From a virus, in UHGV virus genome UHGV-1394528: a DNA stretch of 32,702 bases; one strand, given 5' to 3'. Numbering within the stretch: position 1 is the first letter of the stretch; every line of letters starts with the position of its first letter. Below the pieces are notes generated by a model. That model did no database searches. It worked only from the letters and a program-made list of their open reading frames with translations, and was not told the DNA's origin. This document shows positions 4,045-32,702 of this stretch, in pieces. Made by a program: the position numbers and the translations under genes.

Positions 4045-5640
4045 TTAACTTGGTAATAAGCCCAGCTGCTTACCTGCTACTGTCGGGTCCGCTGCTGTCA
4101 AGCCCTGGAGTTGGTCCTGTGCTGCACCTGCGGATACATCGGCAGACGCATCTTGAACCTGTTGCTTCTGCTGCAGCTGCTCTTCGGTGTACATGAACGG
4201 CTCGCTGACGATACCATAGGCGTCGAAGTACCAGTCTACACACGCATCCTTGTTGAAGCGCGGAGTAATCTGCTCAAGCACCGGGATAGCCAGCTGCATG
4301 GACTGTGCCGCCTCTAACAGCTTGTCCGCTGCCGCGGCTTTAGCCAGCGCAGAGGTACCTACTGTAACGTTGATGCTCACCACGCCTTCGCTGAGGTACA
4401 ACTTAAAGCGAGGGTACACCAGTGCAGTGTACAGGTACGCCAGCTTACGCAGCCAGGTGTCGCTCAGGATACTGAACCCACCACCCATAGCGGCTTCCGC
4501 CTCTTTGGCGTTCTGGCGAATCTCATAAGCCGTGACACGCTCACCCTGCCGGGAGTTGCCGGTGTACATAAACGCACGAGACAGTTTCTGTTCGAGCATC
4601 TGGATGTTGCTGGCAATCCACTGAATCTTCTGGGCAGAGCCGCCCTCGTAAGCAGTGACAGGAGACTTAGTGTTTCCGTTGGAACCACCGCCGCCCACCT
4701 GCACGGCCTCCCCGGTCTCCGCCGTAGAGAACTCGTCCACATCCAGGCCAGAACTAGAATCTACTAGTGGAATCAGCCGAGAGGCTTCGACCTCGTAGTT
4801 AGTCAGTGCTTCCGACAGTACCGATAATCGGGCAAAGTCCCCAGCGTAGTCCTCTACCAAGCCGCGCCCGTAGTGCTCGCCACTAACAAGGTTCCACACC
4901 AGCACGTTGTAGGGGAGCTCCAGCTCCGGATAGGTGCTGCTGTCCCCGATACGGTGTCCATCGGCTTCTTGATACACCTCGTAGCTTACTACCTCTACGC
5001 CTTCCTCTGTCAGCTTAACTTTGCGACAAGCGGCAGTGTAGATATCAACGTCGCCGTATGGGTCTTTGTCACGGTAGAAGGTGTTCTGGAAATCCTCTGG
5101 CAGGTCCTGGACGCTTGTGCGCTCTCTGATAATGAGTCGCAGGACGTTCCCGCTGCCATCCCTTCGAACGGTAAAGTTACGAACTGAGTAGACGATGGAT
5201 TTACCTGTCCGCTCATCAATATACTCCAACGCGTTACCTGTAACCAGCAGCAGCTTCACAGCTTGCAACTTCGCAGCATAACCGTCTTTCTCAAATACTT
5301 TCTGTGACGCTGTGTTCTCAACCTCAGCCAGCTTAGATTCTGCCGTAGCTGCACTGCCCAGCGAACTAATGAACTCGTCCAGGTCCGAACTCTTGGAGAA
5401 CCGGAAGAAGCTAGTGCCCTGAGGGAACAGTGCCCCTACAATCTTAGTGGCTGCAGTGTTGACCAGCTGCGCGCCGGTGCTCTGGTAGTCACGCTCTAGC
5501 GGTCTGCGTCTACCGTCCAGGGAATCGTCCCGGGTAAAGATAGTGCTGAGCGTCCACTGCGCGAACTTCTCGGAGGCATCCAATACACCTGCGTCCTGGT
5601 CCTTCTTAAAGAGTTCTGCTAATGTTGCTTTTTGTTCCAA
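4045..5640 (-). CDS. portal / head-tail connector protein (T7 gp8-like)
   Basis: 531 aa; segments KLQAVKLLLVTGNALEYI and GERVTAYEIRQNAKEAEAAMGGGFSILSDTW match conserved T7 gp8 blocks; apparent TTG start 9 nt after upstream stop. Confidence 0.85.
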   Translation of the reverse strand: MEQKATLAELFKKDQDAGVLDASEKFAQWTLSTIFTRDDSLDGRRRPLERDYQSTGAQLVNTAATKIVGALFPQGTSFFRFSKSSDLDEFISSLGSAATAESKLAEVENTASQKVFEKDGYAAKLQAVKLLLVTGNALEYIDERTGKSIVYSVRNFTVRRDGSGNVLRLIIRERTSVQDLPEDFQNTFYRDKDPYGDVDIYTAACRKVKLTEEGVEVVSYEVYQEADGHRIGDSSTYPELELPYNVLVWNLVSGEHYGRGLVEDYAGDFARLSVLSEALTNYEVEASRLIPLVDSSSGLDVDEFSTAETGEAVQVGGGGSNGNTKSPVTAYEGGSAQKIQWIASNIQMLEQKLSRAFMYTGNSRQGERVTAYEIRQNAKEAEAAMGGGFSILSDTWLRKLAYLYTALVYPRFKLYLSEGVVSINVTVGTSALAKAAAADKLLEAAQSMQLAIPVLEQITPRFNKDACVDWYFDAYGIVSEPFMYTEEQLQQKQQVQDASADVSAGAAQDQLQGLTAADPTVAGKQLGLLPS

Positions 5641-5649
5641 GCTACCCCC

Positions 5650-5916
5650 TTACAGGCCCAGAGGATTGCTCTGCCCTGCTTGTCGCCGTTTCTTCTGCTC
5701 AGACGTAATTGCATCTGCAGATTCAGAGGCAGCCCCTGCGGGGTCAATCTCAGCAATGTTATCTGCGGCGCTATTAGCCTCTAAGGCAGCCTGTTGTTTA
5801 GCTGCGCTGGCCTGCTGCTCTGCCAAGCGCTGCTGCGCCTCTAATCCTGCGTTGTCAGTAAGGCCGAGCATGTCCGTGGCCTTACCTAACAGCTTACCTA
5901 AATTACCACCACTCAT
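5650..5916 (-). CDS. hypothetical protein (possible virion protein), 88 aa
   Basis: Track ORF, A/Q-rich low complexity, overlaps upstream gene by 4 nt (ATGA), sits between RNAP and portal. Confidence 0.5.
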   Translation of the reverse strand: MSGGNLGKLLGKATDMLGLTDNAGLEAQQRLAEQQASAAKQQAALEANSAADNIAEIDPAGAASESADAITSEQKKRRQAGQSNPLGL

Positions 5917-6353
5917 TCTGACCTCACTAAATGATAAGTTGTCTTGTACGTGTTATCCGATGTACTCCGGCTAATGGCTATACGCCCAGCGCGCATGCAT
6001 TTGGCTATTGCGCGCAGGCCTTGCATAATCACAGACACTGCCGCGCCGTTGTCCGGTTTCAATACGAAGAAGTCTGTATACAGCACAGGCTCTACGTAAT
6101 GACAGTCCTCTACAGCCTCTGGGTAGTAGCTGACAGCACCGACTAAGTCGCCTTGGGAGTCATAGACTCCTAGTATATACTGTTTACCCAGTATACTTCC
6201 CAGCACCCTCCAGTAGTGCTGCTCTGGAGCCAGGCCCCGACTAATGCCGTGGCCCAGTTCATGCAGTTGCTTCACTGCGTCCGTAATGTCGTCAGACTTA
6301 TACAGAACTCTGAGAGTGTAGTCGGAAGTTTTACTAGTGTGTTTTAACTTCAT
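5913..6353 (-). CDS. hypothetical protein, 146 aa, first gene after RNAP
   Basis: Track ORF; start preceded by the 17-bp repeat ATGTTACAGGAGTAGGA that contains an AGGAG SD. Confidence 0.55.
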   Translation of the reverse strand: MKLKHTSKTSDYTLRVLYKSDDITDAVKQLHELGHGISRGLAPEQHYWRVLGSILGKQYILGVYDSQGDLVGAVSYYPEAVEDCHYVEPVLYTDFFVLKPDNGAAVSVIMQGLRAIAKCMRAGRIAISRSTSDNTYKTTYHLVRSE

Positions 6354-6378
6354 TCCTACTCCTGTAACATTAAATTTT

Positions 6379-8847
6379 TTAGCAGAAGAAGAACGGGGAT
6401 TCTAGCACTTGCCGGATGTCCAAAGTGCCCACTTCCGGCATGTCCAGGTCCGTCAAGTCTGCCCCGGCTGCTGCTGCCGCGCGAGTAATGTAGCCAAGCA
6501 GGTCATTCTCTTCATACAGGCGCACAAACTGCTCACGGATGTGCCTATGCATAGCGTCAACGTCAGCTGCGTGAGTAGCCAGCGAGTCGTGAATAGGCAC
6601 AATGTCCAACCCCTCCGCAGCACAGAGCACCATCATCAAGTGCGTACTGTCCAGGCTATGCACAAAGTTCGGGGCAATCCCGGAGGCTGCCTTGCGCTTG
6701 TTGCAAGTTTTGAAGTCCCGGTTGTGTACCAGTACCGCTGACAGGTTCATGCAGTCAATACGTACGCGCACTTCTTCACGCTGCGTGTAGCGGTTCATTA
6801 CGAGCCCACCCAGCGGCGTATACCACTGCAGATGCTGGCTTGCCGGTACACGCCTAGCGAGGTTCTGCAAGTACCCCATAACTGCGGCTGCGGCTGGGTT
6901 TGCCTCCTCGATAGCAGTGCGCATACGCGGAGCCAGGTAGCATGACAAGTTCCACAGACTGTTAGTCTCAGTACCCTCGTACCCCTCAGCGCAAGCGCCT
7001 TCGAAGATGTAGTCGCTGCAGCTGCGCACAGTGGCGCTGTAGAAGTAGGTCATACTAGGGCGCTTGGTCATGCTGCGGGTGATTTCGTTCTCTCTCCAGT
7101 ACGTGCTCTGGATAACGAAATCCTCCTTGTCCAGGTCCAGTATCACCTTCTCGTCCGTACGGCGCTTCACGTCCATGTACAGGTCCGCTTTCTTATCATT
7201 ACCCTCCCAGTACAGGTTCGTCAAGCGTCCGCCCACAGGGTCTCTCAGGAGCGCTGAGAGATGCTGTCCACCTGAGTTTGTAGCGTCCATAGCAACTGGG
7301 ATTCGGCTAATATGCTCTTCTGGGCATCCAGAACGAACCGCATTAACCAAGTCGATAGCGGCGGCCAGCAGGCACCAGGGGCTATCCGCAGAGGAAAAAG
7401 CAGGGGCATCAAGAGGAGAATCCGCGAGCCTCTCAATCTCTGCATAGTTCGCATCAACCCAAGCTGCACGGTCTTCGAATAGGGTTTTGTCATAACCAAA
7501 GCAAGTGGCGACGTGCACTTTAAGCCAGAAAAGTCCGCGCTCTCCCAGAGGCTTGCCACGTCCGAATTCAAGAAGGGCTTTCTGCAAATCAGAACCTTGG
7601 GGATGCAGCGAGGACTTGAAGTACAGGCGGTAGCGCCAGTCCACACAAGTCGGGAAGTACAGGGCTTTCTCATCTTTGAATTCCTCCGCCATTTCCAGCG
7701 TGGTCAACAGGCTGCGTAGTTGTGACACACGCTTACGGTCTGCGCTGTACCATAGGGACATGCGCGTCTTCCACTCACCGAAGCGGCCCAGTTCTTCTTC
7801 GGTGTAGTTCTCTTTTGGTACTCCATCCAAGTACCACTCCGGTTTAGGCTCTGGTACTGAGCGGGGCATGCCCACCCCAATACCCAGGGCCCGTGCTTCT
7901 TGCACCAGTTCCAGTATGCGCTTATTAATACGGTATGGGGTTTCCTGTGCCTTATTAAGCGCCTTCTTGATGCCGTCCGCGGACTTAAATGCTTCCGCTA
8001 CTTCACGGAGTCGCGCGCGGTCGATGTGCGAGTTGTGATAGGTCCCGCGATTGTCGATGGGGGTAAGGTACCCGCCATCCCACATAGTGGTGTGCTGTAC
8101 CGGTGGCACCAGCATAGGCGGCTTCATGGTTACGGTATCAGCGGACTCTACCAGTTTCTGGAAGGCCTCCATAACATCGTCAGCCGGGTAGAGCATGCTC
8201 AGGTTCCCACTACAGTTCTTCCATTGGAACAGGCCAGTCTCAAACACCGCGGCACATAGCAGCCGACCTACTGAGATATTCTGGGAGTTGGTCCATGGCT
8301 CGTGCCCATAGTGCACGTTCTCAGCACTGGCCCGCAGCGTACGCAGGATGTGCGTGGGAGACTTGGTCTTACGCTCCGTAAGGTACTCGTACACACGGTC
8401 CATGTACGCCGGAGCCACGTTGCGTAACTGCAGGGCCAGCAGTTCCGATTGTACGTTCCGGCCCAGCGCGGACATTACCGCCTGTGCAGTCTGGCGGCGG
8501 CTAGCGGACTCGCCAGGAGCTACGCTAAATGCCTCAAACATTGTGCATAGGCTCAGGGTGGTCAGGACATCCAAGGGGACTAAGCGCAGGAACCGGCGGT
8601 ACTTACCGCCAATGCCCGGGGCTTTTACATTTCGCATCTCATCGATAGCGGCGGCGGCCACCTCATATGCCGAGGTGAGCATACGCTGCGTCATCGGCAG
8701 GTTCATAATCCCACCGTTCTGCAATGCGTCCGTAATCAGCTTACGTGCCCGCTCGATTCCGCGAATCTTATAGGTCTCTTCAAGCTCCAGCTGGCGTTTC
8801 ACCAGTGCTTCCTCTGGTACTACAACCGTATTCAGGGCGCTAATCAT
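6379..8847 (-). CDS. single-subunit DNA-directed RNA polymerase (T7 RNAP family)
   Basis: 822 aa; motif A-like DATNSGGQHLSALLRD (T7: DGSCSGIQHFSAMLRD) and motif C-like IHDSLATH (T7: HDSFGT). Confidence 0.9.
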   Translation of the reverse strand: MISALNTVVVPEEALVKRQLELEETYKIRGIERARKLITDALQNGGIMNLPMTQRMLTSAYEVAAAAIDEMRNVKAPGIGGKYRRFLRLVPLDVLTTLSLCTMFEAFSVAPGESASRRQTAQAVMSALGRNVQSELLALQLRNVAPAYMDRVYEYLTERKTKSPTHILRTLRASAENVHYGHEPWTNSQNISVGRLLCAAVFETGLFQWKNCSGNLSMLYPADDVMEAFQKLVESADTVTMKPPMLVPPVQHTTMWDGGYLTPIDNRGTYHNSHIDRARLREVAEAFKSADGIKKALNKAQETPYRINKRILELVQEARALGIGVGMPRSVPEPKPEWYLDGVPKENYTEEELGRFGEWKTRMSLWYSADRKRVSQLRSLLTTLEMAEEFKDEKALYFPTCVDWRYRLYFKSSLHPQGSDLQKALLEFGRGKPLGERGLFWLKVHVATCFGYDKTLFEDRAAWVDANYAEIERLADSPLDAPAFSSADSPWCLLAAAIDLVNAVRSGCPEEHISRIPVAMDATNSGGQHLSALLRDPVGGRLTNLYWEGNDKKADLYMDVKRRTDEKVILDLDKEDFVIQSTYWRENEITRSMTKRPSMTYFYSATVRSCSDYIFEGACAEGYEGTETNSLWNLSCYLAPRMRTAIEEANPAAAAVMGYLQNLARRVPASQHLQWYTPLGGLVMNRYTQREEVRVRIDCMNLSAVLVHNRDFKTCNKRKAASGIAPNFVHSLDSTHLMMVLCAAEGLDIVPIHDSLATHAADVDAMHRHIREQFVRLYEENDLLGYITRAAAAAGADLTDLDMPEVGTLDIRQVLESPFFFC

Positions 8848-9863: not shown

Positions 9864-10039
9864 ACGTATATGAACCCCCACCATAAATGCGCGGAGCGTA
9901 TGTGAGCTACGGTCAGTGCCGGAGACATCACCTCTCCGGTGTTAGTGCACCTAACCTGAACCCCTTGCTGTGGGGCGGGTTCCAATATATACACGTCTTG
10001 TGTATCCTCAAAAGTATATTCTCTACCCATTTCTAACAT
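9860..10039 (-). CDS. hypothetical small protein, 59 aa (not in ORF track)
   Basis: Read by eye: MLEMGREYTFEDTQDVYILEPAPQQGVQVRCTNTGEVMSPALTVAHIRSAHLWWGFIYV; fills an otherwise ~150-bp gap; overlaps both neighbours at start and stop. Confidence 0.35.
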   Translation of the reverse strand: MLEMGREYTFEDTQDVYILEPAPQQGVQVRCTNTGEVMSPALTVAHIRSAHLWWGFIYV

Positions 10040-22230: not shown

Positions 22231-23912
22231 TAAGCTGCCTCCTCTGCTTCTTCTTCATCTTCATCGTTGCCCAGGTACTTCTCTCCCAAGCAATCAGCTG
22301 CATGCTCAGTGAGAATTAACCCGTGCACTGGGTGTTCTTCTGCGTGCTCAATAAGCACTTGCCGGTCCTGTGCAAACACCAGTTCCTCTTGGTCGTGCAC
22401 TACACCCTCTACTGCGCAGCGCTCTATGTCCTCGTCGTATACATAGGCGTCGTGGTAATCAGACCAGGTGCAGCTCCAGCGATTATGCAGACCATCACGC
22501 CCAACTACGTACACAAAATCCCCTTCTTCTACGCAGCCGTCGCAGACCATATCACCATCTGCGGTCTCCTGCATGTCATCTACAGAGTAGCGACATTCAC
22601 AGCAGCAGCACCGAGCAGACTCAGTGCCTACGTAGATGTATCCTTCTGAGTCTTGTGCCTCGTACCCATAAGCATCACGGATTACAAAGGCATCATCCCC
22701 ATACTCATCTACGCCGCACTGGCTGCTATCTAGGTATGGCATCAGCACTGCGCCGTTGTATGTTGGGTGCGGTATTCGCGCCAGCATTACCCCTTCGAGA
22801 CATTCAATGTTTTTGGTGTACCTATGCCCCCGCAGGATTGCATCCGCAGCGTTGCCGTAAGCGCGGACGTACTCGTTAGTTTCTGTGTTAACGATTGCCC
22901 GTGCCTGCACTTCGAAATCGTCGCCGAACAGCTCCCCGGTGTACTGGATGAACAGGCGCAGCCCATTATCCGGCAACCCGTGGCTGGTGGTAGCGTACGT
23001 CCGCACAGAGCTATGCTCAAATGAGTACCCGCTCATGCAGCTACCCGGGCCATTCTCGTAGGCGTCGTACCATTCCTGCTCGGTCTTGCACAGGTACGTT
23101 GTAGGGTCTACGTTCATAGCCTTGAGGTCTTCGATAGCATCGCGGAAGTCCACACCATTTCCGTAGTAGTTAGCGAGCCACTTACCTACGCGCATCTCTA
23201 CGCAGCGGTACTCAGTAACTGCTGCGAAGTCCTTGTGCATCCGCGGCTGCCCCAGCATCACGATAGGTTCGCCGTTGCGGAAACCAAAGCCCAAAGGCAC
23301 GGCGAATCTAGACACTACGAAGCCGTGCAACTTCATGAGCAGCGCAGCTAAGTTGCCATCGCGGGTGTGGCGGCCGTAATCGTAGCCAGTGTATAAGCGG
23401 CGCTGCTGCTCTTCTGGTGCAAGCATGATGCGCTCAAATAACTGCACGGCCTGCTTGTGCACCTTGTAACCTGTGAATTCTTCGACGCAAGCAACTACGC
23501 GCTCAACCACTACATCCTCGCCCTCATAGAAGTCGCGGCGGCGTTCCCAGAACTTGCTGTCTATGGTGATTCGCACCGGTTCAAAGAGTTCGCAGAAAGT
23601 TCCGGACCGGTACAGGTCCACCTTTTGCAACGGGCCGAGCGTCATCGTTGATTCGCGATACTCTGGGTGCAGTGCCCCGCCTATAGTCACCTCTAAGCCT
23701 GGAGTGTGCGCACTGACAGTGCGGAGACCCATAAGCACCTGCAGCGGACCCTCAGTGTGGGGATGGTCCTCCCCTTGCATTTGCAAGTCCTGGAACGGGG
23801 TCCAGTAATCACCGCTGGAATACATTGATTCTTTAATCGGCAGTGCGTTTGCACCTTCCGGTAACACTACTTTCCATTCGATAGGTGCTGTGTTAGTTTC
23901 TTGCATTTTCAT
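22230..23912 (-). CDS. large hypothetical protein with Cys cluster and acidic C-terminal tail
   Basis: Track ORF 22230..24200 (656 aa) trimmed to Met97 (ATG 23910-23912, SD GGGAG); the first 96 codons are Ser/Leu/Pro-rich and overlap the more protein-like 114-aa ORF. Contains CCCCECRY...CDGC and C-terminal NDEDEEEAEEAA; stop overlaps next ATG (TAATG). Confidence 0.6.
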   Translation of the reverse strand: MKMQETNTAPIEWKVVLPEGANALPIKESMYSSGDYWTPFQDLQMQGEDHPHTEGPLQVLMGLRTVSAHTPGLEVTIGGALHPEYRESTMTLGPLQKVDLYRSGTFCELFEPVRITIDSKFWERRRDFYEGEDVVVERVVACVEEFTGYKVHKQAVQLFERIMLAPEEQQRRLYTGYDYGRHTRDGNLAALLMKLHGFVVSRFAVPLGFGFRNGEPIVMLGQPRMHKDFAAVTEYRCVEMRVGKWLANYYGNGVDFRDAIEDLKAMNVDPTTYLCKTEQEWYDAYENGPGSCMSGYSFEHSSVRTYATTSHGLPDNGLRLFIQYTGELFGDDFEVQARAIVNTETNEYVRAYGNAADAILRGHRYTKNIECLEGVMLARIPHPTYNGAVLMPYLDSSQCGVDEYGDDAFVIRDAYGYEAQDSEGYIYVGTESARCCCCECRYSVDDMQETADGDMVCDGCVEEGDFVYVVGRDGLHNRWSCTWSDYHDAYVYDEDIERCAVEGVVHDQEELVFAQDRQVLIEHAEEHPVHGLILTEHAADCLGEKYLGNDEDEEEAEEAA

Positions 23913-23952
23913 TTGCTCCCGAGTTAATAGAACTTCGTCATGCACTAAGAGT

Positions 23953-24297
23953 TCAGCGTGCGTACCACGCGGAGAGTTGTTGCTGCTTATAATAGGCGCG
24001 GACTGCGGCTCTAAATTGCTTAAAAGCTCCGCGGTATCCATTCCGCCGTAGTGCTGCAACCACATCGAATGCAATGTGCTCTTGCAGCTTCCGCGCGGCA
24101 GACTCAGTGTACTCTCGATAGGTTGTGAGAACAGTGCCAATATCCTCTTTTCTAACTCGGAGTAATCGACGCTCAACTGGCACGATTTGCTTGAGTTCAT
24201 TAGGAACCTCTTTGAATGTTTCCCAAGTGCAACCGCACTTGCCCTGCGTTTCCAGCAGACGCCAGCACAGCAGCGCTGTTTCGTCTACTGTGAGCAT
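23953..24297 (-). CDS. hypothetical protein, 114 aa
   Basis: Track ORF, charged K/E/R-rich composition. Confidence 0.45.
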   Translation of the reverse strand: MLTVDETALLCWRLLETQGKCGCTWETFKEVPNELKQIVPVERRLLRVRKEDIGTVLTTYREYTESAARKLQEHIAFDVVAALRRNGYRGAFKQFRAAVRAYYKQQQLSAWYAR

Positions 24298-24503
24298 GCG
24301 CTATCCTTGAATACCACGTTGCGGGCCACAAGGGTGCTACAACTTAGCATTACCACCCCGCCAACTGTGTGACTGGACGGCAACCACAGTCTAGTCTCCT
24401 CTGCATAGAATTCTGCGAGGGCGTGCAGTGGACTAAATAGAGGTACCCGGTAAAGAAACCCATTAGGGCGCTTATATACGTCATAAATGTCCTGCTTGCT
24501 CAT
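24285..24503 (-). CDS. hypothetical protein, 72 aa
   Basis: Track ORF; ATG overlaps upstream stop (ATGA). Confidence 0.45.
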   Translation of the reverse strand: MSKQDIYDVYKRPNGFLYRVPLFSPLHALAEFYAEETRLWLPSSHTVGGVVMLSCSTLVARNVVFKDSACSQ

Positions 24504-24679
24504 ACTACACCCCGCACATTAAACCGGAAGCAGTAGCCGCGCAGGGTCATACCCAGGCGCTTTGCTTGTTTCTCATAGTGCTGGCGCAGCGCTGCCTTCG
24601 CGTTGTACTCCCGCGCCAGCCCGTCGATTGTTGGTTGCTGCTTACGCATCAGCAGCGTTTCAGGATTCTTTCCGTGCAT
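24500..24679 (-). CDS. hypothetical small basic protein, 59 aa (not in ORF track)
   Basis: Read by eye: MHGKNPETLLMRKQQPTIDGLAREYNAKAALRQHYEKQAKRLGMTLRGYCFRFNVRGVV; SD GAGGTG with 5-nt spacer; stop overlaps next ATG. Confidence 0.4.
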   Translation of the reverse strand: MHGKNPETLLMRKQQPTIDGLAREYNAKAALRQHYEKQAKRLGMTLRGYCFRFNVRGVV

Positions 24680-24688
24680 GCCCCCACC

Positions 24689-24982
24689 TCAAATTTCGTT
24701 ATTGCTCTTACCATCCACCGTGAGCGTTACCGCAGCGTCCTGGTACTGCTCCTGCACCGCCGCAAGGATACGTGCGCCCAGCTCTTTGCAACCACCCTCG
24801 GGGTCTTCAAATAGGTCGTACTCAGGGCGCGGCTGCGGCTCCTGCGTTGCCGGTTGCTGCAACTGCACAGTGCAGTATGGGATTGGGTTGTTTATGTCGT
24901 TGCCCAGCACCAGCATAGCGCTGGTCACAATGATGTTGAATACATTAACCATAAAGTTGTCTCCAGTCGTTGATAATGCCAA
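24689..24982 (-). CDS. hypothetical protein, 97 aa (N-terminal hydrophobic segment)
   Basis: Track ORF; may start at Met11. Confidence 0.45.
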   Translation of the reverse strand: MALSTTGDNFMVNVFNIIVTSAMLVLGNDINNPIPYCTVQLQQPATQEPQPRPEYDLFEDPEGGCKELGARILAAVQEQYQDAAVTLTVDGKSNNEI

Positions 24983-25178
24983 GATTCACGGCGTCCAGCA
25001 CAGTGCGGGCAGCCATTTCGGTGTAGGTATCCACAAATTCTAAAGGGGATTCCTGATTAGTGTCTTTGTCAGAAAATATGACCACAGTGTAGTTGTATTC
25101 TGCGTATACCCGATTGCACCACACGGGCCAGAGTTCATGGCCCGGATAGACCAGTATTGCTTTCATATGAAACCTCAT
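24945..25178 (-). CDS. hypothetical early protein, about 73-77 aa
   Basis: Track ORF; likely start at Met5 (SD GAGG); palindromic motif B 13-25 nt upstream. Confidence 0.5.
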   Translation of the reverse strand: MRFHMKAILVYPGHELWPVWCNRVYAEYNYTVVIFSDKDTNQESPLEFVDTYTEMAARTVLDAVNLGIINDWRQLYG

Positions 25179-25227
25179 ACGCCAGTTGCATTCACATAGC
25201 GCCCCGCAGGACGCTATAGGCTTGCTA

Positions 25228-25299
25228 CTAGAGATATTCGCCCACCACTACAAATAACAGCACCACCGCCGTTATGATAACCATGAATTCTACGCTCAT
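25228..25299 (-). CDS. hydrophobic micro-ORF, 23 aa (not in ORF track)
   Basis: Read by eye: MSVEFMVIITAVVLLFVVVGEYL; ATG overlaps stop of the 191-aa gene (ATGA). Confidence 0.25.
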   Translation of the reverse strand: MSVEFMVIITAVVLLFVVVGEYL

Positions 25300-25871
25300 G
25301 CCGCCGCCTTCAAAGTTGCGTCCAGTACAGCGCGTACATCCACGCCCTGCGATACCAGCATAGACACGAGGTCAGCGTCGCTTACACCAGTCTCTTTTGC
25401 CTTCTTGATAGCGTTTTTAACGCGCCCCAGCGCTTGCAAGCGCACTGCATCGGCATCCAGCGCGTCATTCTTTACCTGCTCCGCTTCGGCAGCGTACAGG
25501 GCCATACAGGAGCTATAGAAGCTGGCTACAATTACTTCGCGCTCCTGCTTGTCAGCTTGTTTATAGTCCAGACGCATAGTGTCCAGTTCGATGCCCAGCT
25601 TCTCAGCAGACGCATAGCACTTCTTCGCGTTGAATTCGTATTTGCCGGACTCCTTGTTGAACTTGATAGGCAGCAGCGTACGCAGCACCATATCGAAGTC
25701 CGCGGCATCGCTGCGCTGCATATCCATAGCCCAGGAAACGTTGCTGCTAATCAGGCCGTGGAAGAGCGCGCTAATAGTGATGTTGCGCTTTGCTTCCACT
25801 ACGTCGCCCAGCGCTTTACGAATGCTGCCCGCAGCGGTGAGCTTGAATACTTTACCAGTTGAATGGGTCAT
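25296..25871 (-). CDS. hypothetical early protein, 191 aa (first sizeable gene after the leader)
   Basis: Track ORF; SD AGAGGTG with 5-nt spacer; palindromic motif A about 37 nt upstream. Confidence 0.6.
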   Translation of the reverse strand: MTHSTGKVFKLTAAGSIRKALGDVVEAKRNITISALFHGLISSNVSWAMDMQRSDAADFDMVLRTLLPIKFNKESGKYEFNAKKCYASAEKLGIELDTMRLDYKQADKQEREVIVASFYSSCMALYAAEAEQVKNDALDADAVRLQALGRVKNAIKKAKETGVSDADLVSMLVSQGVDVRAVLDATLKAAA

Positions 25872-25942
25872 AATGCACCTCTTTGATTGGTTGTTTAGGT
25901 AATTACTTCACATAGCACCCCGTAGGATGCTATAGGCTGTAA

Positions 25943-26140
25943 TTATCGACCAAATTGGGAGTTAACAGTAGGCCATCCAGATGGCTGCCTGCTACTGCCC
26001 TTTTGTTTTTGCTTTCCCCTCACCCTGTGCTCACTGCTCAACCCTTGTTTGCTAGGCTTCACAGTAAGCGGCACGTCGTCGGTGGGATTCAGTGATAATT
26101 GCATATTCCGCCGTAATGCTAAACGCTTTGATTTGCGCAT
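25943..26140 (-). CDS. possible small basic protein, 65 aa
   Basis: Track ORF with good SD (GAGAGG, 8-nt spacer) but low-complexity R/K/S-rich sequence; may be non-coding leader. Confidence 0.25.
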   Translation of the reverse strand: MRKSKRLALRRNMQLSLNPTDDVPLTVKPSKQGLSSEHRVRGKQKQKGSSRQPSGWPTVNSQFGR

Positions 26141-26490
26141 ACTCTTACCTCTCAGAGAACATAATCTAGCGCAACCTTGTTACTGCTGCGCTATGTTATA
26201 TGCTCTTTGCGGGATACACTCCGCGCCTTGTTCCCTCGATTCAGAGGAGCGAGCTGCTCTCGCCTCGACAGTGTGGTTTGTCTCAGAACCCCGGTGATAA
26301 CGTCCGGCACGTTTACTCTTTAACTGATTGTCTAGGGGTGGGTCGTCAACGTACCAGTCAAGGTACTGGGCCTCCCCGCAAACCAGCTTACTACTAAACC
26401 TTTAAGAGGTCATTTTTAACGTCTAGCCTAATCCGACGGGACACACATCCTTGCGCCCTAGAGTGGTTATCCTTGCCTTGTTCGCTATCT

Positions 26491-26519
26491 AAGTTACTCA
26501 GTGAATCAGAACTTGTCAA
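26491..26519 (-). promoter_or_regulatory. candidate sigma70 early promoter (downstream of tandem pair)
   Basis: Minus strand: -35 TTGACA (26519-26514), 17-bp spacer, -10 TAACTT (26496-26491). Confidence 0.35.
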
Positions 26520-26559
26520 GCGTTTATTTCTTACTGCCTTACTGCTTACTTCGGGATTC

Positions 26560-26588
26560 AATCTAGCTTATGTTCTTCGCGGTGTCAA
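26560..26588 (-). promoter_or_regulatory. candidate sigma70 early promoter (upstream of tandem pair)
   Basis: Minus strand: -35 TTGACA (26588-26583), 17-bp spacer, -10 TAGATT (26565-26560). Confidence 0.4.
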
Positions 26589-26740
26589 CTCTTTTTATTG
26601 AGTGTCTAACCCTTCACACTATCTAGCTTTAATCCGGCTGAATCTCCCGACTCTGCCCCGGTTAGCGCCTCAGTGCCTCCCGGTGATTGAACTATAGCCC
26701 TATTGAACCAAAAGAAGCAAGTACTTTTTTAAACTTTTTA

Positions 26741-27157
26741 TCACCGGGAGCAAAAAGAGTAAGCAGACCCCCAAAGGTCTGCGTGCAGTAAACTATTGTA
26801 GTCCCCATAAGTCACGTCGAACTCTCGCCAGTTAGTATCGTACTCAGGACTAGCCAATAACTCATCCTTTGTGAAGCATCTCCCTTCCTGAATCTGTGCT
26901 AAGTGTATGGCCCGGTGAGTGTCAGCGCTAACCAGTATCAGGTTATTGAAGTCACAGTTAAGGCGGTTACTGTCACAGTGATGTACGTGATAGCCAGAAC
27001 CGTAGCTAGTGATTCCCAGAGCATCCATAACCACGGCCCTATGCAGCGCCACAGTCTTATAGTCTCTCTTACCTCGCTTATTCACATACTCAGGCCCAGC
27101 ACCATTAATCACTGGATAACCTTCCTTATCAACCACAATCTTAAATGTTCTAGCCAC
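26741..27157 (-). CDS. HNH endonuclease
   Basis: HVHHCDSNRLNCDFNNLILVSADTHRAIH (H-N-H core); GTG start with SD AAGGAG. Confidence 0.7.
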   Translation of the reverse strand: MARTFKIVVDKEGYPVINGAGPEYVNKRGKRDYKTVALHRAVVMDALGITSYGSGYHVHHCDSNRLNCDFNNLILVSADTHRAIHLAQIQEGRCFTKDELLASPEYDTNWREFDVTYGDYNSLLHADLWGSAYSFCSR

Positions 27158-27399
27158 AACAATATCTCCTTACATAGTGATTAGTAGCGTAACCATAGCG
27201 ACGATATCCCGGAGGGATAGGAGCGGAGGTTACAAGATTCTAGGTAATGCTTCCCTCCCTACGGTCAGTCATACAGGGCATTACTAGGGGATACTAGTGA
27301 CTACTAGTGAGTAGTAGTAAGTAGTGTGTATATAGTGCCCTAAAACCCTCCTACTCCTGTAACATCATTTCATGACAGCTTTCGAATGAAAGTAAGAGC

Positions 27400-27830
27400 A
27401 AAGGGATAGCAAAGAGATAGCGCCGGGATAGTGTTGGGTGAGGATGTGCGCCCTAGTGGGGAGCGCGCAGCGTAGCATATAATCGGCACAATGTAAAGCA
27501 CTAGGGATAGCCAGTGGATAGCCTAGTGCATACTAGGGATAGCACCGTGACGCACTACAGCGCACTAGGCAGGCCCACTATGGCCCCACAATGCAGGCAC
27601 TAGGCGGGCCCACTATGGACGCGCAAAATAAGCAAGGCAGAGCGCACCCCTACGGCCCACAGGGAGCGCACAGGGATAGCCCCTAGTGCCCCGTAGAGCG
27701 CACAGGAGCCACTCAGTGCCACGCACAGGCCAAGCCGTGGGGCAGCACTAGCGATAGCCCCAGCGCAGCGCAGGGAGCCACTGAGGCCCTCTGAGGCTTC
27801 CGCTATAGCCACGGTCTTAGCTGCCGTGGC
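27400..27830. repeat. repeat-dense CTAG-rich non-coding region (iteron-like GGGATAGC copies, 24-bp tandem repeat, short palindromes)
   Basis: At least 7 copies of (G)GGATAGC-like octamers (27403, 27414, 27425, 27504, 27516, 27536, 27673, 27751); direct repeat gcactaggcRggcccactatggMc at 27562-27585 and 27597-27620; GAGCGCAC x3. Confidence 0.6.
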
Positions 27831-27979
27831 GCTCCACACCTCAGAGAGCGCCCTAGGGCCGTCTAGACGTCTAGGCACCCACCCCACCCCTCCTTTTATG
27901 CGCTAGGCACCCCCTATGGGGGCAATTGGCGTCGTTGAGGGTGAGGGAGGCTCAAGGGCGAGTATAATAATTTTTGGTT

Positions 27980-28441
27980 TCAGATATACACCTGCCCCGG
28001 GGTGAAGGCCTTGTGTTGCTCTTGACGTTTCTCTAGTACCCACTTGCAGATAACTTCGTAGGAGCTGTGCTTCTTCATGTAACGCTTACCGTCCTTCCAG
28101 AACTCCCCGCGCCAGCAGGTGCCAGTGTAGTATACACCCCTAGGATGTTCCCGCTTAGACCTGCGTGCGTTACAGTTGTTTTCGCTAACCGTAGCTAAGC
28201 GCAGGTTCTCTAATCTGTTGTCACCGGGGTTTTGGTTGATGTGGTCCACCACATATCCGTCTGGAATAGGCCCGTTGTGTAGTTCCCAGATGAGGCGGTG
28301 TGCCTGTATCTTTCTACCAGATACCTGTACCACCCAGTAGCCACGAGTGTTGCGGGTACCCGCTGGAGCACCGGCGCGCCTACCCTTGAGCCACACCAAG
28401 CAGCTAGGGGATGTTGTGTCATATTTGATGTTCATAGACAT
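27980..28441 (-). CDS. HNH homing endonuclease (HNH_3/AP2-like)
   Basis: AHRLIWELHNGPIPDGYVVDHINQNPGDNRLENLRLA; paralog of the HNH at 2699-3175. Confidence 0.8.
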   Translation of the reverse strand: MSMNIKYDTTSPSCLVWLKGRRAGAPAGTRNTRGYWVVQVSGRKIQAHRLIWELHNGPIPDGYVVDHINQNPGDNRLENLRLATVSENNCNARRSKREHPRGVYYTGTCWRGEFWKDGKRYMKKHSSYEVICKWVLEKRQEQHKAFTPGQVYI

Positions 28442-28536
28442 ATCCTCATTTTAAAGTCTAATAAATTTCAGGTCCAGGTATAGACGTGCACCCCAGCAGT
28501 GCCCCGGGATACCGTAGAGATACCCCAGGGAGCTAC

Positions 28537-30492
28537 TTAGAGATACACCTCCCATGCTACCTGGGATACGTCCGCTGCGTTACTGCTCCTAATCACGAAG
28601 CTGTTTAGGTCCGGATTAGGTGTAGGCACATCCTGGTTCTGAGCTACGCCAGTAACCGTCAAGGCCCCAGCACTAGAAGGAAAGGTCAACCGCGTCAACT
28701 TAACCTCAGACACCCACTTGAAGGAGTTAGCTACGCTGCCAAAGTTTCCGCGTACACGGGCGTTGACTGTAGCCTCACCAGCCACCAGCGTTGCCACTCC
28801 ACGGATACCTGTGTCATCCAGTAAGTTCCTGGACATGCGCGGAGGCGTAGGTTGAACGGTGTAGCCGCTCAGCAATGCCCAGAACAAGCCGTGACCGGTC
28901 ATGTCGTTATTGGACATAGATACCAGGGTAGGGTCAATGCCCATAGTCCCGTGGAAGTACACAGCTCTCCCGGTACCGTCGTAGCGCATGCTCACGCCAT
29001 CAATCTCCAGGGATGTCTGCGCTGTCTCAGCTACGTCCTTAGTGACGAAGATGTGAGAGCTGGAGTTGCGGGTGTACCGACCACCCTTAACACGGCCCCC
29101 GTTGATTCGCACACCATTCTGGCTACCGTGAGCCTCGCAGTCATAAACGTAGCCACCGCCGTACGAGCAGTTAAAGCCAGAGCGTACGTTGTCATAAGCT
29201 AGGCACTCCCTATAGATAGGGAAGGCTACACCGGTGTTGGAGGCGAACCCGTCCATAGCTGCACGGTAAGCTCGACAGTTCAAGTACTCCACCCCGTTAG
29301 TGCGCGCTTGGAACCCATCGTCAGCACTGTCGTACGAAACGCAGCGAACGAACTTCACACGCTTACCAATGTCATGAGTATCAAACCCAGCTTGGGTTGT
29401 GCTGTAGGCTTCGCAGTTAACGCCTAAGAACTCGATAGGCTCCCCCCATTTGTCCCCGTCTGCAGTGCTCTGCCAGTTCAGAGAGATTGCGTGGCGTACG
29501 TCCATGGCGTGGATATCGTGTACTTCCGTGTCCTCTGAGCAGCCGAGCACCTCTACCCCGTACCATCCGATGTTGTAGAAGCACGTACCCTTAACGGTAC
29601 TATCTACGCAGTTATTGAACTTGATAGCACTACGCCCTTCTATATCAGAAGCCCCGGGGCGTTTGTTGCCAATAATAACCCCGTCCTGGATGTGCAAGTC
29701 CGCGGCAAAGTTGGCAGAGATACCGATAGTAAAGAACCGGTTCAAATCGTCGTAGCCGAACTCGTTGATGTACGGGGATACTAAGGTTACGTTCTCCACC
29801 ATTGTCGGGATACCTACTTCCGCGGCATCAGACAGGTAGTAGTTATAGTGCAGCGCTTTATCCAGCCGAATACTGGTGACGCCACCGGAGGTGCTAACCC
29901 CCACCACTTTCCTAATCTGGGAAATCTTTACACCGTAGGTGTTAGGACCACCATCACACAGCTTGTTAGAGCGAAGATACAAGTACGTACCTTTTACCGC
30001 AGACAAAGCCCCGGCAGCCACCGTAATGACTTTGCTGCCCGCTGTGGCATCCGCCGCTAACGGGACGAATGCCGAGGGTGCCGAGCCGATAATGTTAAGC
30101 ACTTGACGTGCAACCGAGGCATCCGGCAGGATTCTTCCGGTATCAGTAAACTCCAGCGTAGAGTTGCTTTTGATGTTGAGCACACTCGTGGCCTGCAGGA
30201 CTGTGTCCACAACCAGGTGCCTATTAGGTGCGCTCATGAACGTTACTATGCCCGCCCAATTGCTGAACCAGGAGCTGTATGCCGGACCCACGAATTTACG
30301 GAGTAGATACCCACCAGGTACAGCAAACACAGTTCCGTTATCCACTACCGACGCGGCAGTAGTAAAGGTGAAGTCCCCACCGGCGCTGCCCAGCAGGATA
30401 ATCTTGTCCTGTACCTGAAAGTTTGGATATGCTACCATGCTCGCCAAGTCGGAGAATACCCGCTCTGGAGCTACTAATCTAATTAACGCCAT
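28537..30492 (-). CDS. tailspike protein, probable polysaccharide depolymerase with beta-helix
   Basis: 651 aa; Gly/Asn/Ser/Thr-rich with periodic hydrophobic residues and scattered Cys/aromatics typical of parallel beta-helix depolymerases; ATG follows endolysin stop directly. Confidence 0.7.
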   Translation of the reverse strand: MALIRLVAPERVFSDLASMVAYPNFQVQDKIILLGSAGGDFTFTTAASVVDNGTVFAVPGGYLLRKFVGPAYSSWFSNWAGIVTFMSAPNRHLVVDTVLQATSVLNIKSNSTLEFTDTGRILPDASVARQVLNIIGSAPSAFVPLAADATAGSKVITVAAGALSAVKGTYLYLRSNKLCDGGPNTYGVKISQIRKVVGVSTSGGVTSIRLDKALHYNYYLSDAAEVGIPTMVENVTLVSPYINEFGYDDLNRFFTIGISANFAADLHIQDGVIIGNKRPGASDIEGRSAIKFNNCVDSTVKGTCFYNIGWYGVEVLGCSEDTEVHDIHAMDVRHAISLNWQSTADGDKWGEPIEFLGVNCEAYSTTQAGFDTHDIGKRVKFVRCVSYDSADDGFQARTNGVEYLNCRAYRAAMDGFASNTGVAFPIYRECLAYDNVRSGFNCSYGGGYVYDCEAHGSQNGVRINGGRVKGGRYTRNSSSHIFVTKDVAETAQTSLEIDGVSMRYDGTGRAVYFHGTMGIDPTLVSMSNNDMTGHGLFWALLSGYTVQPTPPRMSRNLLDDTGIRGVATLVAGEATVNARVRGNFGSVANSFKWVSEVKLTRLTFPSSAGALTVTGVAQNQDVPTPNPDLNSFVIRSSNAADVSQVAWEVYL

Positions 30493-31101
30493 TTATCCTC
30501 CGGTCTTAGTAAGAGCTGCCACTGCAGCATTTACATTCTTATACTGATTCCCAATGGCCTTGCTCTGCCACTGTCTGCGCTCCCATAGGCCCCAGCACAC
30601 TTTATTGCGCTGCCCGTTAATATACTGAGAGCAGTCGAAGGTCCAGCGGTTGCTGCCCTTGTACACCCAACCGATGCCCGGGGATTTCTGCTGATACTTG
30701 CTAATATAGCGCCAGTCCAGTACGGCCTTTCCAGCTTCTGCGTAATTCAGGCTTTTGAGGTGCCGCTTCACAGCACTGCCGTTGAAGCCAGCTACGCCTA
30801 CGTTATAAATGAAGTCTACAGACCCAACCAGAGCTACGTCAGAGAGCTGCATAGGAAGCCCGTCAAGAGCCTTTGCATGTGCCCCTGCTGATTCTATCAG
30901 TTGCTTCTGACAATCGCTCAGCGTGGCTCTCTGGCCCATCTTGACGCCCTTTGTCTCCCCGTAGCAGATTGTAGGGACACCGGCACTATCCTTATAGGCG
31001 GTAAGGCTCAATCCCTCGTTGTGCTGAACCACCCCGGTAATAGCACCACCCAGCATAGTGGCCCCCGTGAGGGCCGCAATAACCTTAGTCCTTAAACTCA
31101 T
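30493..31101 (-). CDS. SAR endolysin (lysozyme-like muramidase with N-terminal signal-arrest-release domain)
   Basis: N-terminal Gly/Ala-rich weakly hydrophobic segment KVIAALTGATMLGGAITGVV, then E...D...T pattern HNEGLSLTAYKDSAGVPTICYGETKG as in phage P21 lysozyme. Confidence 0.8.
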   Translation of the reverse strand: MSLRTKVIAALTGATMLGGAITGVVQHNEGLSLTAYKDSAGVPTICYGETKGVKMGQRATLSDCQKQLIESAGAHAKALDGLPMQLSDVALVGSVDFIYNVGVAGFNGSAVKRHLKSLNYAEAGKAVLDWRYISKYQQKSPGIGWVYKGSNRWTFDCSQYINGQRNKVCWGLWERRQWQSKAIGNQYKNVNAAVAALTKTGG

Positions 31102-31336
31102 ATTTAATAGTCCCCTTACGCGCCTGCTCTTCTAGGAGCTTGAATGTACGTCGCTTGTAATACGCATTCCACGCCAGGGTTAGCACTGCGCACACAGTCG
31201 CAGTGATGAAGCTGATAGTGCTCCAGTTCCAGCTCATTAACTCTGCCAACCAACCTCCTGATACCGTAGCGCCGGTAACTGCTGCACCTGCCCGGGTAGC
31301 GAGGTCTGCTCCAACCATGTCTCCCACCTTAATCAT
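31085..31336 (-). CDS. holin (pinholin-like)
   Basis: 83 aa; weakly hydrophobic Gly/Ala-rich TMD1 (AGAAVTGATVSGGWLAELM), hydrophobic TMD2 (TISFITATVCAVLTLAW), charged C-terminus; two in-frame Mets (M1, M7). Confidence 0.6.
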   Translation of the reverse strand: MIKVGDMVGADLATRAGAAVTGATVSGGWLAELMSWNWSTISFITATVCAVLTLAWNAYYKRRTFKLLEEQARKGTIKYEFKD

Positions 31337-31733
31337 CCTGCTGCCCCTTCTTCCTGAACAGCTTACGAATCACCAGAATGACCACTAGGAAGACCAGAGG
31401 AATACTGGCCCCAGCTAATCCGGCGAGGATAAGACTGTAACTATCATTGTTAACCACCTGCAGGCGTTCTGCCTGGATTGTCCCGGTGCTAATAGTTTGC
31501 ACCTGCTTCTTACTGGACGTGTCCAAAGTGCCTACGTTAGAATCCTGTACATCAGTTTTGTTGGTGGTGCTGGAGTCCACCTTGTTATTCAAGCCAACGG
31601 TTTGTTTGGTGTTCTCGGCACCAACCTGAGCAGATACATCCGGCTTAGAACCAACTAATCCGGTGAGTGCAGAGGTCGCCGAGCAACCAGTCAGAGTAAC
31701 CGCGAGCAGCAACCCAGCGACCAGTTTACGCAT
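31329..31733 (-). CDS. lipoprotein with C-terminal transmembrane anchor (unimolecular-spanin-like)
   Basis: Signal peptide plus lipobox MRKLVAGLLLAVTLTGC; polar S/T/Q/N-rich middle; C-terminal TMD LILAGLAGASIPLVFLVVILVI followed by RKLFRKKGQQDD. Confidence 0.55.
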   Translation of the reverse strand: MRKLVAGLLLAVTLTGCSATSALTGLVGSKPDVSAQVGAENTKQTVGLNNKVDSSTTNKTDVQDSNVGTLDTSSKKQVQTISTGTIQAERLQVVNNDSYSLILAGLAGASIPLVFLVVILVIRKLFRKKGQQDD

Positions 31734-31915
31734 TAGCTAGCAGCCTTCACTGCGGCCACCGCGGCTTCAAGCGCAGCAATCTTGGTATCGAAGGCAGCAC
31801 CAGTCTGGGCCACGTTCTGCGGCTGCGTAAGGATAGCATACAGGTCCTTACCGAGAATGTTCAGCTGACGCAACAGCTCCTGCTGTTGCGCTGAGGTTGC
31901 TTTTGCAATTGCCAT
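31733..31915 (-). CDS. hypothetical protein, 60 aa
   Basis: Track ORF, Ala/Gln-rich, overlaps downstream start by 1 nt. Confidence 0.4.
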   Translation of the reverse strand: MAIAKATSAQQQELLRQLNILGKDLYAILTQPQNVAQTGAAFDTKIAALEAAVAAVKAAS

Positions 31916-31926
31916 GTGTACTCTCC

Positions 31927-32301
31927 TTATTCTGCCGCATCAGTGGCGGCTACGAATGCACTCTGCAGTGCAGTGAACGAATCATCAAACGCTGTACCGG
32001 AGCCCTCACCGAGCGGCATACCTGTACCTGTAAGGGCAACGTAGCCGGTCTTAGAGAGCTGTGACAGCATGCTGAACAGGCGCGCCTGCAGCGTACCGTC
32101 ATCCTTAAAGGCTGTACCGGCACGGGTAGCCGTATAGCCCTGGGACTGCATGTACGTGAAGAACGCGTTCAGCTTAGTCAGGGCAGTCGTACCTACGAAG
32201 CCTACGTTGTAGTCCGGCTGCACCTGCTTCTCCAGGTTCTGGCACGTGCCTACAATGGCGTACTGGACGTCCGCAGTTTTAGCTGCGATGATTGATGCCA
32301 T
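31927..32301 (-). CDS. hypothetical protein, 124 aa
   Basis: Track ORF immediately after terminase large subunit stop. Confidence 0.5.
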   Translation of the reverse strand: MASIIAAKTADVQYAIVGTCQNLEKQVQPDYNVGFVGTTALTKLNAFFTYMQSQGYTATRAGTAFKDDGTLQARLFSMLSQLSKTGYVALTGTGMPLGEGSGTAFDDSFTALQSAFVAATDAAE

Positions 32302-32702
32302 TATCTTCTTCCTCTATGTTGTTTACCTCTGCCCCGGTTATGTAGCCGAGCAGCTACACCACGAAGGCCCTTAGACACTTTGCTCTGTGCCCAATCCAGT
32401 GGGTTCTCAATGAAGGCCCGAGCCATCTTCTCAGACTCACGTTCAGCCACCACTTTCTCATCTTCCACCAGATGCCCATTCAGCGTAGCCACCATCATGG
32501 CGATTGCGTCTGCCCGGTCATCCTTCGCAAGGCTACCGCGGTCGTACGTGATACCGGACAACTGCGCGAACGCAGAGTACAGCCAACGCCTATCGCGGGA
32601 ATATGCCATACAGGTACTGATATCGTCGTGAATAGCACGCTCATGCACTACCAGGCGATGGCGACGAGTAACTGGGCTGATTGTGTCGATGATACGACGC
32701 TC
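32301..32702 (-). CDS. terminase large subunit (T7 gp19-like), 3' part; continues beyond window end
   Basis: Frame open to window end; RIIDTISPVTRRHRLVV and YDRGSLAKDDRADAIAMMVA match T7 gp19 C-terminal nuclease-domain blocks (RIIDTLEPVMGRHKLII; ERGSLKHDDRLDALA). Confidence 0.85.
   Translation of the reverse strand, partial: ERRIIDTISPVTRRHRLVVHERAIHDDISTCMAYSRDRRWLYSAFAQLSGITYDRGSLAKDDRADAIAMMVATLNGHLVEDEKVVAERESEKMARAFIENPLDWAQSKVSKGLRGVAARLHNRGRGKQHRGRR

Follow-up and report, generated by a model that had tools for sequence, protein, structure and literature searches.

Hairpins conserved in the early sense-strand RNA of a Drulisvirus are probable RNase III processing sites

We analyzed the virus genome UHGV-1394528, a single stretch of 32,702 nucleotides (nt) that we refer to as the window, and focused on a hairpin element that occurs twice in its early operon. 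The two elements are, with high confidence, conserved hairpins of the sense-strand RNA, and we propose that host RNase III probably processes them as it does the early transcript of phage T7. The window belongs to Drulisvirus, the KP34-like Klebsiella podoviruses, with its genes on the minus strand, and 251 deposited phage genomes match the region 24000–27000 at 80–95% identity. The conserved core of the element is 32 nt (AGCCTATAGCRTCCTRCGGGGYGCTATGTGAA, minus strand) and lies at 25191–25222 and 25907–25938. Read along the minus strand, the copies are AGCCTATAGCGTCCTGCGGGGCGCTATGTGAA (25222–25191) and AGCCTATAGCATCCTACGGGGTGCTATGTGAA (25938–25907), identical at 29 of 32 positions. An earlier note on this DNA had reported two repeats of about 32 base pairs (bp), and both are real, with the start of the second displaced by one position, to 25907. 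It had also described inverted hexamers (ATAGCG-N10-CGCTAT and ATAGCA-N10-TGCTAT), which are exact in both copies, and a G/A difference in one arm that is indeed matched by a C/T change in the other. The 6-bp stem with a 10-nt loop that these hexamers would form is replaced by a 10-bp stem with a 4-nt loop, an additional C-G pair and a lower helix. No third copy was found in the window at up to three mismatches, for which shuffled sequences gave an expectation of 0 matches. A covariance model search of the window returned exactly two matches, with 69.3 bits (25900–25945) and 67.5 bits (25183–25230), and none before the late genes.

Both copies form a two-helix hairpin on the minus strand, as indicated by folding and by the covariance model. 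The promoter-proximal copy (25900–25945) reads UAAUUAC-AG-C.CUAUAGCAUCC-UACG-GGGUGCUAUG.U.G-AA-GUAAUUA. Its upper stem is formed by the 5′ arm CCTATAGCATCC (25925–25936), comprising a C-G pair, a mismatch of C with U (CxU) and then 10 bp, and the 3′ arm GGGTGCTATGTG (25909–25920), which is supported by the fold and by covariation. The stem is capped by a UACG tetraloop of the UNCG class with a C-G closing pair (25921–25924), identified from the fold and from scoring of the family. The internal-loop AA occupies 25907–25908, and the predicted cut of the 3′ strand falls within it at 25908/25907, between GCUAUGUGA and A. The lower helix pairs TAATTAC (25939–25945) with GTAATTA (25900–25906), the latter arm again supported by fold and covariation. 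The promoter-distal copy (25183–25230) reads UAGUAGCA-AG-C.CUAUAGCGUCC-UGCG-GGGCGCUAUG.U.G-AA-UGCAACUG, with a UGCG tetraloop (25205–25208), also of the UNCG class and identical to the loop of the T7 R1 site, and an internal-loop AA at 25191–25192, where the cut is predicted at 25192/25191. Its lower helix is built from the arms TAGTAGCA (25223–25230) and TGCAACTG (25183–25190), which pair at 7 of 8 positions and are unrelated in sequence to the TAATTAC/GTAATTA helix of the proximal copy. In both copies the 10-bp upper stem contains two G.U pairs and is followed by the extra C-G pair past the CxU mismatch. Upper stem, AG/AA internal loop and lower helix together give an irregular helix of approximately 21–23 stacked positions. 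The 5′ arm of the lower helix contains the stop codon of the preceding gene in each case, the TAA (25943–25945) of a 65-residue gene upstream of the proximal copy and the TAG (25228–25230) of a 23-residue open reading frame (ORF) before the distal copy.

The fold is strong only on the sense strand. For the proximal copy (25900–25945), the sense RNA folds at −20.0 kcal/mol (z −4.9), compared to −13.4 for the antisense RNA, −8.1 for the sense DNA and −6.4 for the antisense DNA. The corresponding values for the distal copy (25183–25230) are −23.0 kcal/mol (z −3.9), −15.6, −9.5 and −8.3. None of 200 shuffles folded as well as the native sequence for either copy, and the covariance model scores the sense strand at 67–69 bits and the antisense strand at about 12 bits. 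A scan of the region 23500–28500 against Rfam at a permissive threshold returned nothing.

Comparison of related genomes, a check that the earlier note had suggested, reveals that pairing is conserved while the sequence varies. We scanned IMG/VR with the pattern CCTATAGC-N12-GCTATG, which fixes six stem pairs, and obtained 142 occurrences, among which 86 have all four inner positions paired, far above chance. We then aligned 63 distinct 50-nt copies from several phage lineages in one ungapped register. The proposed structure pairs 93.1% of the cells in this alignment, against 26–45% when the 3′ partners are slid, and the covariation score of 0.508 compares to 0.138 in shuffles and was reached by 0 of 500 of them. 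Double-sided changes occur at 12 of the 19 pairs, each column pair of the lower helix shows three to six different pair types, and RNAalifold returns the identical structure unprompted. The pairs fixed by the search pattern also vary with the structure retained in copies found by the covariance model: U-A becomes C-G in contigs L097 and L100, C-G becomes U-A in SP6, U.G becomes U-A in L045, and C-G becomes U.G in L054. Across the family the upper stem contains 159 G.U pairs and 3 A.C pairs, and thus the pairing is present on the transcribed sense strand only. An RNA hairpin was one of three possibilities raised in the earlier note and is the one that these data bear out.

Both copies lie within the early transcription unit, downstream of sigma-70 promoters, and KP34 is arranged alike. 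The first promoter, TTGACA-N17-TAGATT (26560–26588, minus strand), is identical to the host promoter of KP34 and its relatives (PMC4411677 Table 3). The second, sigma-70-like early promoter TTGACAAGTTCTGATTCACTGAGTAACTT (26491–26519, minus strand) is the host promoter of NTUH-K2044-K1-1 in the same study (PMC4411677). The proximal hairpin precedes an early gene of 191 residues (25296–25871, minus strand; PHROG 5277, unknown function) that sits between the two hairpins, and the distal hairpin is followed by an early gene of 73 residues (24945–25166, minus strand; PHROG 7657, unknown function). The placement upstream of early gene starts that had been described is thus correct, with 36 and 25 nt from GUGAA to the next start codon. 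These distances correspond to a predicted leader of 36 nt before the AUG at 25871 for the proximal copy, and of 25 nt before the AUG at 25166, with a GAGG Shine-Dalgarno sequence, for the distal copy. Predicted leaders across the family are 24–51 nt in length, with a median of 31.

We scored the family copies against the rules for Escherichia coli RNase III substrates from Pertzev and Nicholson 2006 (PMC1540722). In this scheme an 11-bp helix runs from the loop to the cut, with a distal box at bp 2–3, a middle box at bp 5–6 and a proximal box at bp 8–11. The 3′ strand of uR1.1 is cut 2 nt beyond bp 11, and the scissile bond must lie at least 11 bp from the tetraloop (PMC1540722). The 10 bp and the CxU position of the family give a loop-to-cut length of 11, as in natural R1.1. 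The closing pair, bp 1, is C-G in R1.1 and in 48/63 copies. At bp 3 (distal box 2), the U.G of R1.1, described as a ‘stringent requirement’, is found in 58/63. The middle box (bp 5–6) is C-G, U.G in R1.1, with G-C at bp 6 enhancing, and C-G, G-C in the family. At bp 9 (proximal box 2), A-U or U-A is accepted and G/C blocks binding; all 63 copies have A-U, and thus carry no G/C binding antideterminant. At bp 11 (proximal box 4), where G/C blocks catalysis, natural R1.1 has CxU and so do 58 of the 63 copies, which therefore lack a G/C catalytic antideterminant at this position. The proximal box 4 is C-G in only four outlying copies.

The architecture of the elements is equivalent to that of the T7 sites. 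When the T7 early intergenic gaps were folded, they showed a lower helix and an internal loop below a 9–10-bp upper stem that includes G.U pairs and ends in a tetraloop, GCAA in R0.3 and R1.1 and UGCG in R1. The cuts in T7 are reportedly located at 890, 1468 and 3138, coordinates that are attributed to Dunn and Studier in 1983, and from them we computed T7 leaders that we take to be 26–34 nt. The T7 RefSeq record has no RNase III site features, and these cut coordinates are consistent with the uR1.1 geometry (PMC1540722). In SP6 and K1-5, every early gene, ocr and the RNA polymerase gene among them, is preceded at approximately 25–35 nt by a hairpin of similar build, and several of these hairpins have UNCG loops. 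The early region of J8-65 (L126) forms a regular array of gaps of about 70 nt, in which the first gap holds a CCUAUAGC-type element and five of the six gaps hold T7-type RNase III-like hairpins (2533–2610, 2923–2988, 3259–3328, 3605–3680 and 3933–4004). One of these T7-type gaps is identical to T7 R1 at 24 of 25 positions, though J8-65 is not a T7-like phage (Studiervirinae). PP16 (L125) has a second, hybrid hairpin at 2377–2416, CCUGUAACCCAUUC-UUU-GAGUGGGUUAUGUGG, with a base like that of the family and a top like T7 R1.1, hinting that the family and T7 classes are related or recombining. Thus, the J8-65 array and the PP16 hybrid indicate that two sequence classes occupy equivalent slots.

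From this architecture and geometry, the partial agreement with the substrate rules and the context, we consider it probable that host RNase III processes the hairpins as in T7. Host RNA polymerase would synthesize an early polycistronic transcript from the sigma-70 promoters at approximately 26590–26490, in which the irregular helices would form and be bound and cut by RNase III. With T7 R1.1 as the model, cutting would be confined to the 3′ strand, two nt past the CxU position, after GCUAUGUGA and before A. Where a target site contains mismatches, RNase III cuts a single strand, and the RNA is stabilized by the hairpin left at its 3′ end, as in T7 (PMC3867540). The upstream message would then carry a terminal hairpin of high stability as a block to 3′ exonucleases, and the downstream message would be freed with a short unstructured leader of 25–36 nt before its ribosome-binding site. 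In this manner the early operon would be split into messenger RNAs (mRNAs) that are separately stable and separately translated. RNase III as the acting factor, the exact position of the cut, cutting on one or both strands and the effects on mRNA stability and translation are what we infer from the comparison with T7.

Several points weigh against RNase III processing. The family deviates from the R1.1 optimum at three positions: distal box 1 (bp 2), U-A in R1.1 and C-G in 50/63 copies, where natural T7 sites vary too; proximal box 1 (bp 8), G-C in R1.1 and U-A in 63/63; and proximal box 3 (bp 10), A-U in R1.1 and U.G in 63/63. Substitutions at these positions reduce the reactivity of a minimal substrate (PMC1540722), yet the two proximal-box optima are preferences and not absolute requirements. 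The family does not share the T7 consensus (AAGGUC...GGCCUU-UAUGAU), and its covariance model finds no match in T7 nt 1–8000, nor in phiKMV nt 1–7000. The sole similarity to T7 is partial and lies at the top of the stem, CAUCC-UNCG-GGGUG compared to CAUC-UGCG-GGUG. Since the model misses the T7 sites, the likeness is architectural and not sequence homology. With its small, almost symmetric internal loop (2x2, and 1x1 in SP6-like phages), the element might be cut on both strands, which would remove the protective hairpin. Across lineages, the upper-stem base (CCUAUAGC/GCUAUGUG) shows more conservation than RNase III alone would obviously need, and another sequence-specific factor could be involved. 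Finally, a literature search returned no cleavage data for any member of the family and no 5′-end or transcriptome data for Drulisvirus.

The element is distributed across several phage lineages. A 50-nt query matched 245 deposited genomes. The covariance model finds two copies, occasionally three, in Drulisvirus and one copy each in Vectrevirus (K1-5, K1E and ACG-C91), in Zindervirus and SP6-like Klebsiella and Salmonella phages (between gp6 and gp7 in SP6), in Kotilavirus PP16 and in Bonnellvirus J8-65. Kuravirus phiEco32 and about 100 relatives have one copy, between gp91 and gp90. Three contigs contain hybrid elements that combine the proximal 5′ flank with the distal core and 3′ flank (L017:9132–9181, L086:207–256 and L103:~9960–10008). 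Pairing of the lower helix is lost in the hybrids, and the same contigs lack the gene of about 190 residues that otherwise lies between the copies. The hybrid element together with the missing gene indicates a natural deletion through recombination between the two repeats, and the 191-residue gene of the window is the one lost in such variants. Some Drulisvirus contigs have three copies (L055:6799–6848, 6887–6936 and 7843–7892; L102:4597–4646, 4505–4554 and 3725–3774), two of which are 88 nt apart with a tiny ORF between them. We also observed a family-like hairpin of 46 bits in a phi80-like lambdoid contig (L014:2013–2062), located right after DNA homologous to the phi80 O-L region and followed by an intrinsic terminator and an acidic ORF of 106 residues. 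A correspondence of this copy to the RNase III site of the lambda N leader was considered and set aside, given the terminator behind the hairpin and the ambiguous context.

We next weighed other explanations for the conservation of the hairpins. It is possible, though we think it fairly unlikely, that they act as structural RNAs without RNase III cleavage. They might form an extra-stable C(UNCG)G-capped barrier to exonucleases or to RNase E scanning, insulate cistrons, or bind a sequence-specific phage or host RNA-binding protein, such as a translational regulator, or a non-cleaving RNase III, an enzyme that can regulate by binding without cutting (PMC3867540). The sense-strand structure and the covariation fit this explanation equally well, both copies in the window have UNCG loops with a C-G closing pair, and the intergenic regions of phages often contain hairpins of this sort, for which stabilizing roles are documented (Tuerk 1988; T4 gene 32; both as cited in PMC8948821). 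The sequence conservation across lineages of the stem base and the flanking AG and GUGA is also as expected for a specific protein contact. However, UNCG loops are present in about half of the family (31/63), the others being UAUG, CUGA, CAUG and GCUG, and thus loop identity is not the conserved feature. A simple barrier has no need of a lower helix, a fixed 11-position geometry or a CxU mismatch, all three of which match RNase III substrates. A non-exhaustive search found no candidate binding protein common to Drulisvirus, SP6-like phages, PP16, J8-65 and phiEco32, and in J8-65 the element stands in the same array as the T7-type sites.

We regard as unlikely a second explanation, in which the element is a mobile RNA module with a regulatory role that at least five enterobacterial phage lineages (Slopekvirinae, Molineuxvirinae, Corkvirinae, Bonnellvirus and Kuravirus) have exchanged horizontally. 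Here its stem base and flanks, AG-CCUAUAGC...GCUAUG-UGA, would be recognized by a sequence-specific RNA-binding factor or an RNA-guided process and not by RNase III.

A function at the level of the DNA is improbable. The candidates are a palindromic operator, a site-specific nick (the alternative raised by Eriksson), a replication or priming signal, and a mere recombination linker by which early-gene cassettes are shuffled. The elements do have dyad symmetry, the hybrids of L017, L086 and L103 demonstrate that the repeats do recombine, and the element is found at module boundaries in several lineages, yet recombination is a by-product of any repeat. The invariant T.G positions become A.C on the opposite strand and break the symmetry of the DNA, and the flanks are asymmetric, AG on one side and TGAA on the other. 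The inner stem and lower helix drift in sequence with pairing kept, which a protein half-site would not tolerate; an operator for a dimeric regulator, the second possibility of the earlier note, is disfavoured on these grounds. As DNA, the hairpins are weak, at −8 to −9.5 kcal/mol. For the nick we compared the elements to CGACNNNNNCCTACTCCGG, which we take to be the phiKMV-type nick consensus; it has no match at the elements and a single match with three mismatches elsewhere in the window, at chance level.

The remaining possibility of the earlier note, a phage promoter, is also the published assignment. Eriksson et al. 2015 (Viruses 7:1804, PMC4411677 Table 3) listed the same 32-mer as a “putative phage promoter”, named a site-specific nick as the other option, and reported two copies per genome in KP34, SU503, SU552A, NTUH-K2044-K1-1 and F19. 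The element is the longest repeat within the genome and sits upstream of genes (PMC4411677), and it contains CTATAG, reminiscent of the T7 and SP6 promoters. GenBank records KP708986 (SU552A, 2227–2273) and KX856662 (KP-Rio/2015, 2974–3021) label the element as a promoter. However, Lu et al. 2019 (PMC6834552) obtained no transcript with purified KP34 RNA polymerase from a polymerase chain reaction (PCR) fragment carrying the motifs, whereas T(A/G)ATGTTACAGGAGTA was active and ACTTTGGACATCCGTCAAGT weakly so, and a 2025 promoter survey (PMC11880802) found the old “standard” KP34 promoter to be at odds with experiment. A hairpin promoter extruded on supercoiled DNA, as in phage N4, could have escaped an assay on a linear PCR fragment. 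The validated KP34-type promoters are located elsewhere in the window, all on the minus strand: S1 has an exact match at 6357–6372, directly after the 822-residue RNA polymerase gene (6379–8847), the weak promoter matches with one mismatch at 6407–6426, and S2 is exact at 27352–27367. The element occurs in two copies only, and these lie in the early region, whose expression precedes synthesis of the phage RNA polymerase. It is common to phages of unrelated polymerase specificity (SP6-like, KP34-like), to PP16 and J8-65, and to phiEco32, which has no single-subunit (phage-type) RNA polymerase, and this independently rules out a polymerase promoter. Thus, a role of the element as a start site for the single-subunit RNA polymerase of the phage is already largely refuted, and we find it, the supercoil-dependent variant included, very improbable. 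We found no published paper that gives the element another function, and a literature search on RNase III sites or 5′-end maps in SP6/K1-5, Drulisvirus and phiEco32 yielded no relevant paper other than Eriksson 2015, Lu 2019 and the 2025 survey; one further match to the motif proved to be a PCR primer. Two related candidates were also rejected. The hexamers and spacings of a sigma-70 promoter overlapping the element misfit by eye and a promoter scan calls none, and an intrinsic terminator lacks its U-tract, the hairpins being followed by GUGAAGUAAUU or GUGAAUGCAAC, with neither copy called by a terminator scan.

Equally hard to credit is a cis-acting antitermination signal of the lambda nut or HK022 put type, by which host RNA polymerase would traverse the early and middle genes, about 20 kb in all: two near-identical hairpins do follow the early promoters, recalling nutL and nutR, and Drulisvirus leans on the host enzyme for its long early/middle region because its own polymerase gene is about 20 kb in, but SP6-like phages, PP16 and J8-65 have a single copy, which lies between early genes and not right after a promoter, the J8-65 element alternates with T7-type RNase III sites, and no boxA-like element and no N-like protein is known, with no search aimed at them. 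The boxB hairpins of lambda nutL and nutR are likewise two near-identical small hairpins downstream of early promoters. They consist of 5 bp and a pentaloop, put consists of two stem-loops, and the architecture of the family, with its single-copy members in other lineages, is unlike either.

Additional features were observed around the early operon. The 23-residue ORF that ends in the distal hairpin (25228–25299, minus strand; MSVEFMVIITAVVLLFVVVGEYL) is hydrophobic and overlaps the end of the 191-residue gene by ATGA. An ORF for an HNH endonuclease (26741–27157, minus strand), with a terminator-like hairpin (26763–26782, minus strand), lies between the phage RNA polymerase promoter at 27352–27367 and the sigma-70 promoters, and many relatives are without this stretch, as seen from coverage gaps in the genome matches. 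Position 27000 of the window aligns to approximately nt 800 of the deposited records. The region 27400–32702 contains more minus-strand ORFs, and the window extends about 5.7 kb beyond the point matching the left end of the reference. This suggests a source that is a circular permutation with respect to KP34, or a concatemer junction.

Papers, prediction tools and some GenBank records have carried the motif as a phage promoter, despite the negative result of the sole experiment, and its function was left open since 2019. Assignment to an RNase III-type hairpin resolves this loose end and sets right how several hundred Klebsiella phage genomes are annotated. For the engineering of therapeutic Drulisvirus phages, the sites likely mark where one independently stable early mRNA ends and the next begins, and recombination at them, with loss of the intervening gene, is demonstrated. 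More broadly, the comparison suggests that T7-style RNase III punctuation extends across several Autographiviridae subfamilies and beyond, with at least two interchangeable sequence classes.

Comparison with the T7 early RNase III signals (R0.3, R0.5, R1, R1.1 and R1.3) reveals a shared sense-strand hairpin between early genes transcribed by host RNA polymerase, present in several near-identical copies per genome. In both, a tetraloop caps a 9–10-bp upper stem containing G.U pairs, and mismatches or an internal loop lead to a variable lower helix. The CxU next to the cut and, as in R1.1, the U.G at distal box 2 are common to both, and the leaders of 25–36 nt to the next AUG in the window are of the T7 kind. 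The stem differs, CCUAUAGC...GCUAUGUGA in the window and AAGGUC...GGCCUUUAUGA in T7, the internal loop of the window element is smaller and more symmetric, and its cleavage is a prediction. With the extra-stable C(UUCG)G/UNCG hairpins of Tuerk et al. 1988 and the T4 gene 32 leader, the elements share an intergenic position on the sense strand and the loop class, C(UACG)G and C(UGCG)G in the window and C(UUCG)G in SP6 and phiEco32; across the family, however, the loop class is not conserved, and what is conserved is a stem base, a mismatch geometry and a lower helix, none of which defines the Tuerk class. The ‘putative phage promoter’ of the Kp34likevirus genus (PMC4411677) is the same element, with the consensus AGCCTATAGCGTCCTACGGGGCGCTATGTGAA at the same two positions, described there as 32 nt in five phages without the hairpin, the lower helix or the occurrence beyond the genus. 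Thus, the motif itself was already published (Eriksson 2015), and its assignment to a family of sense-strand RNase III-type hairpins is what we add here.

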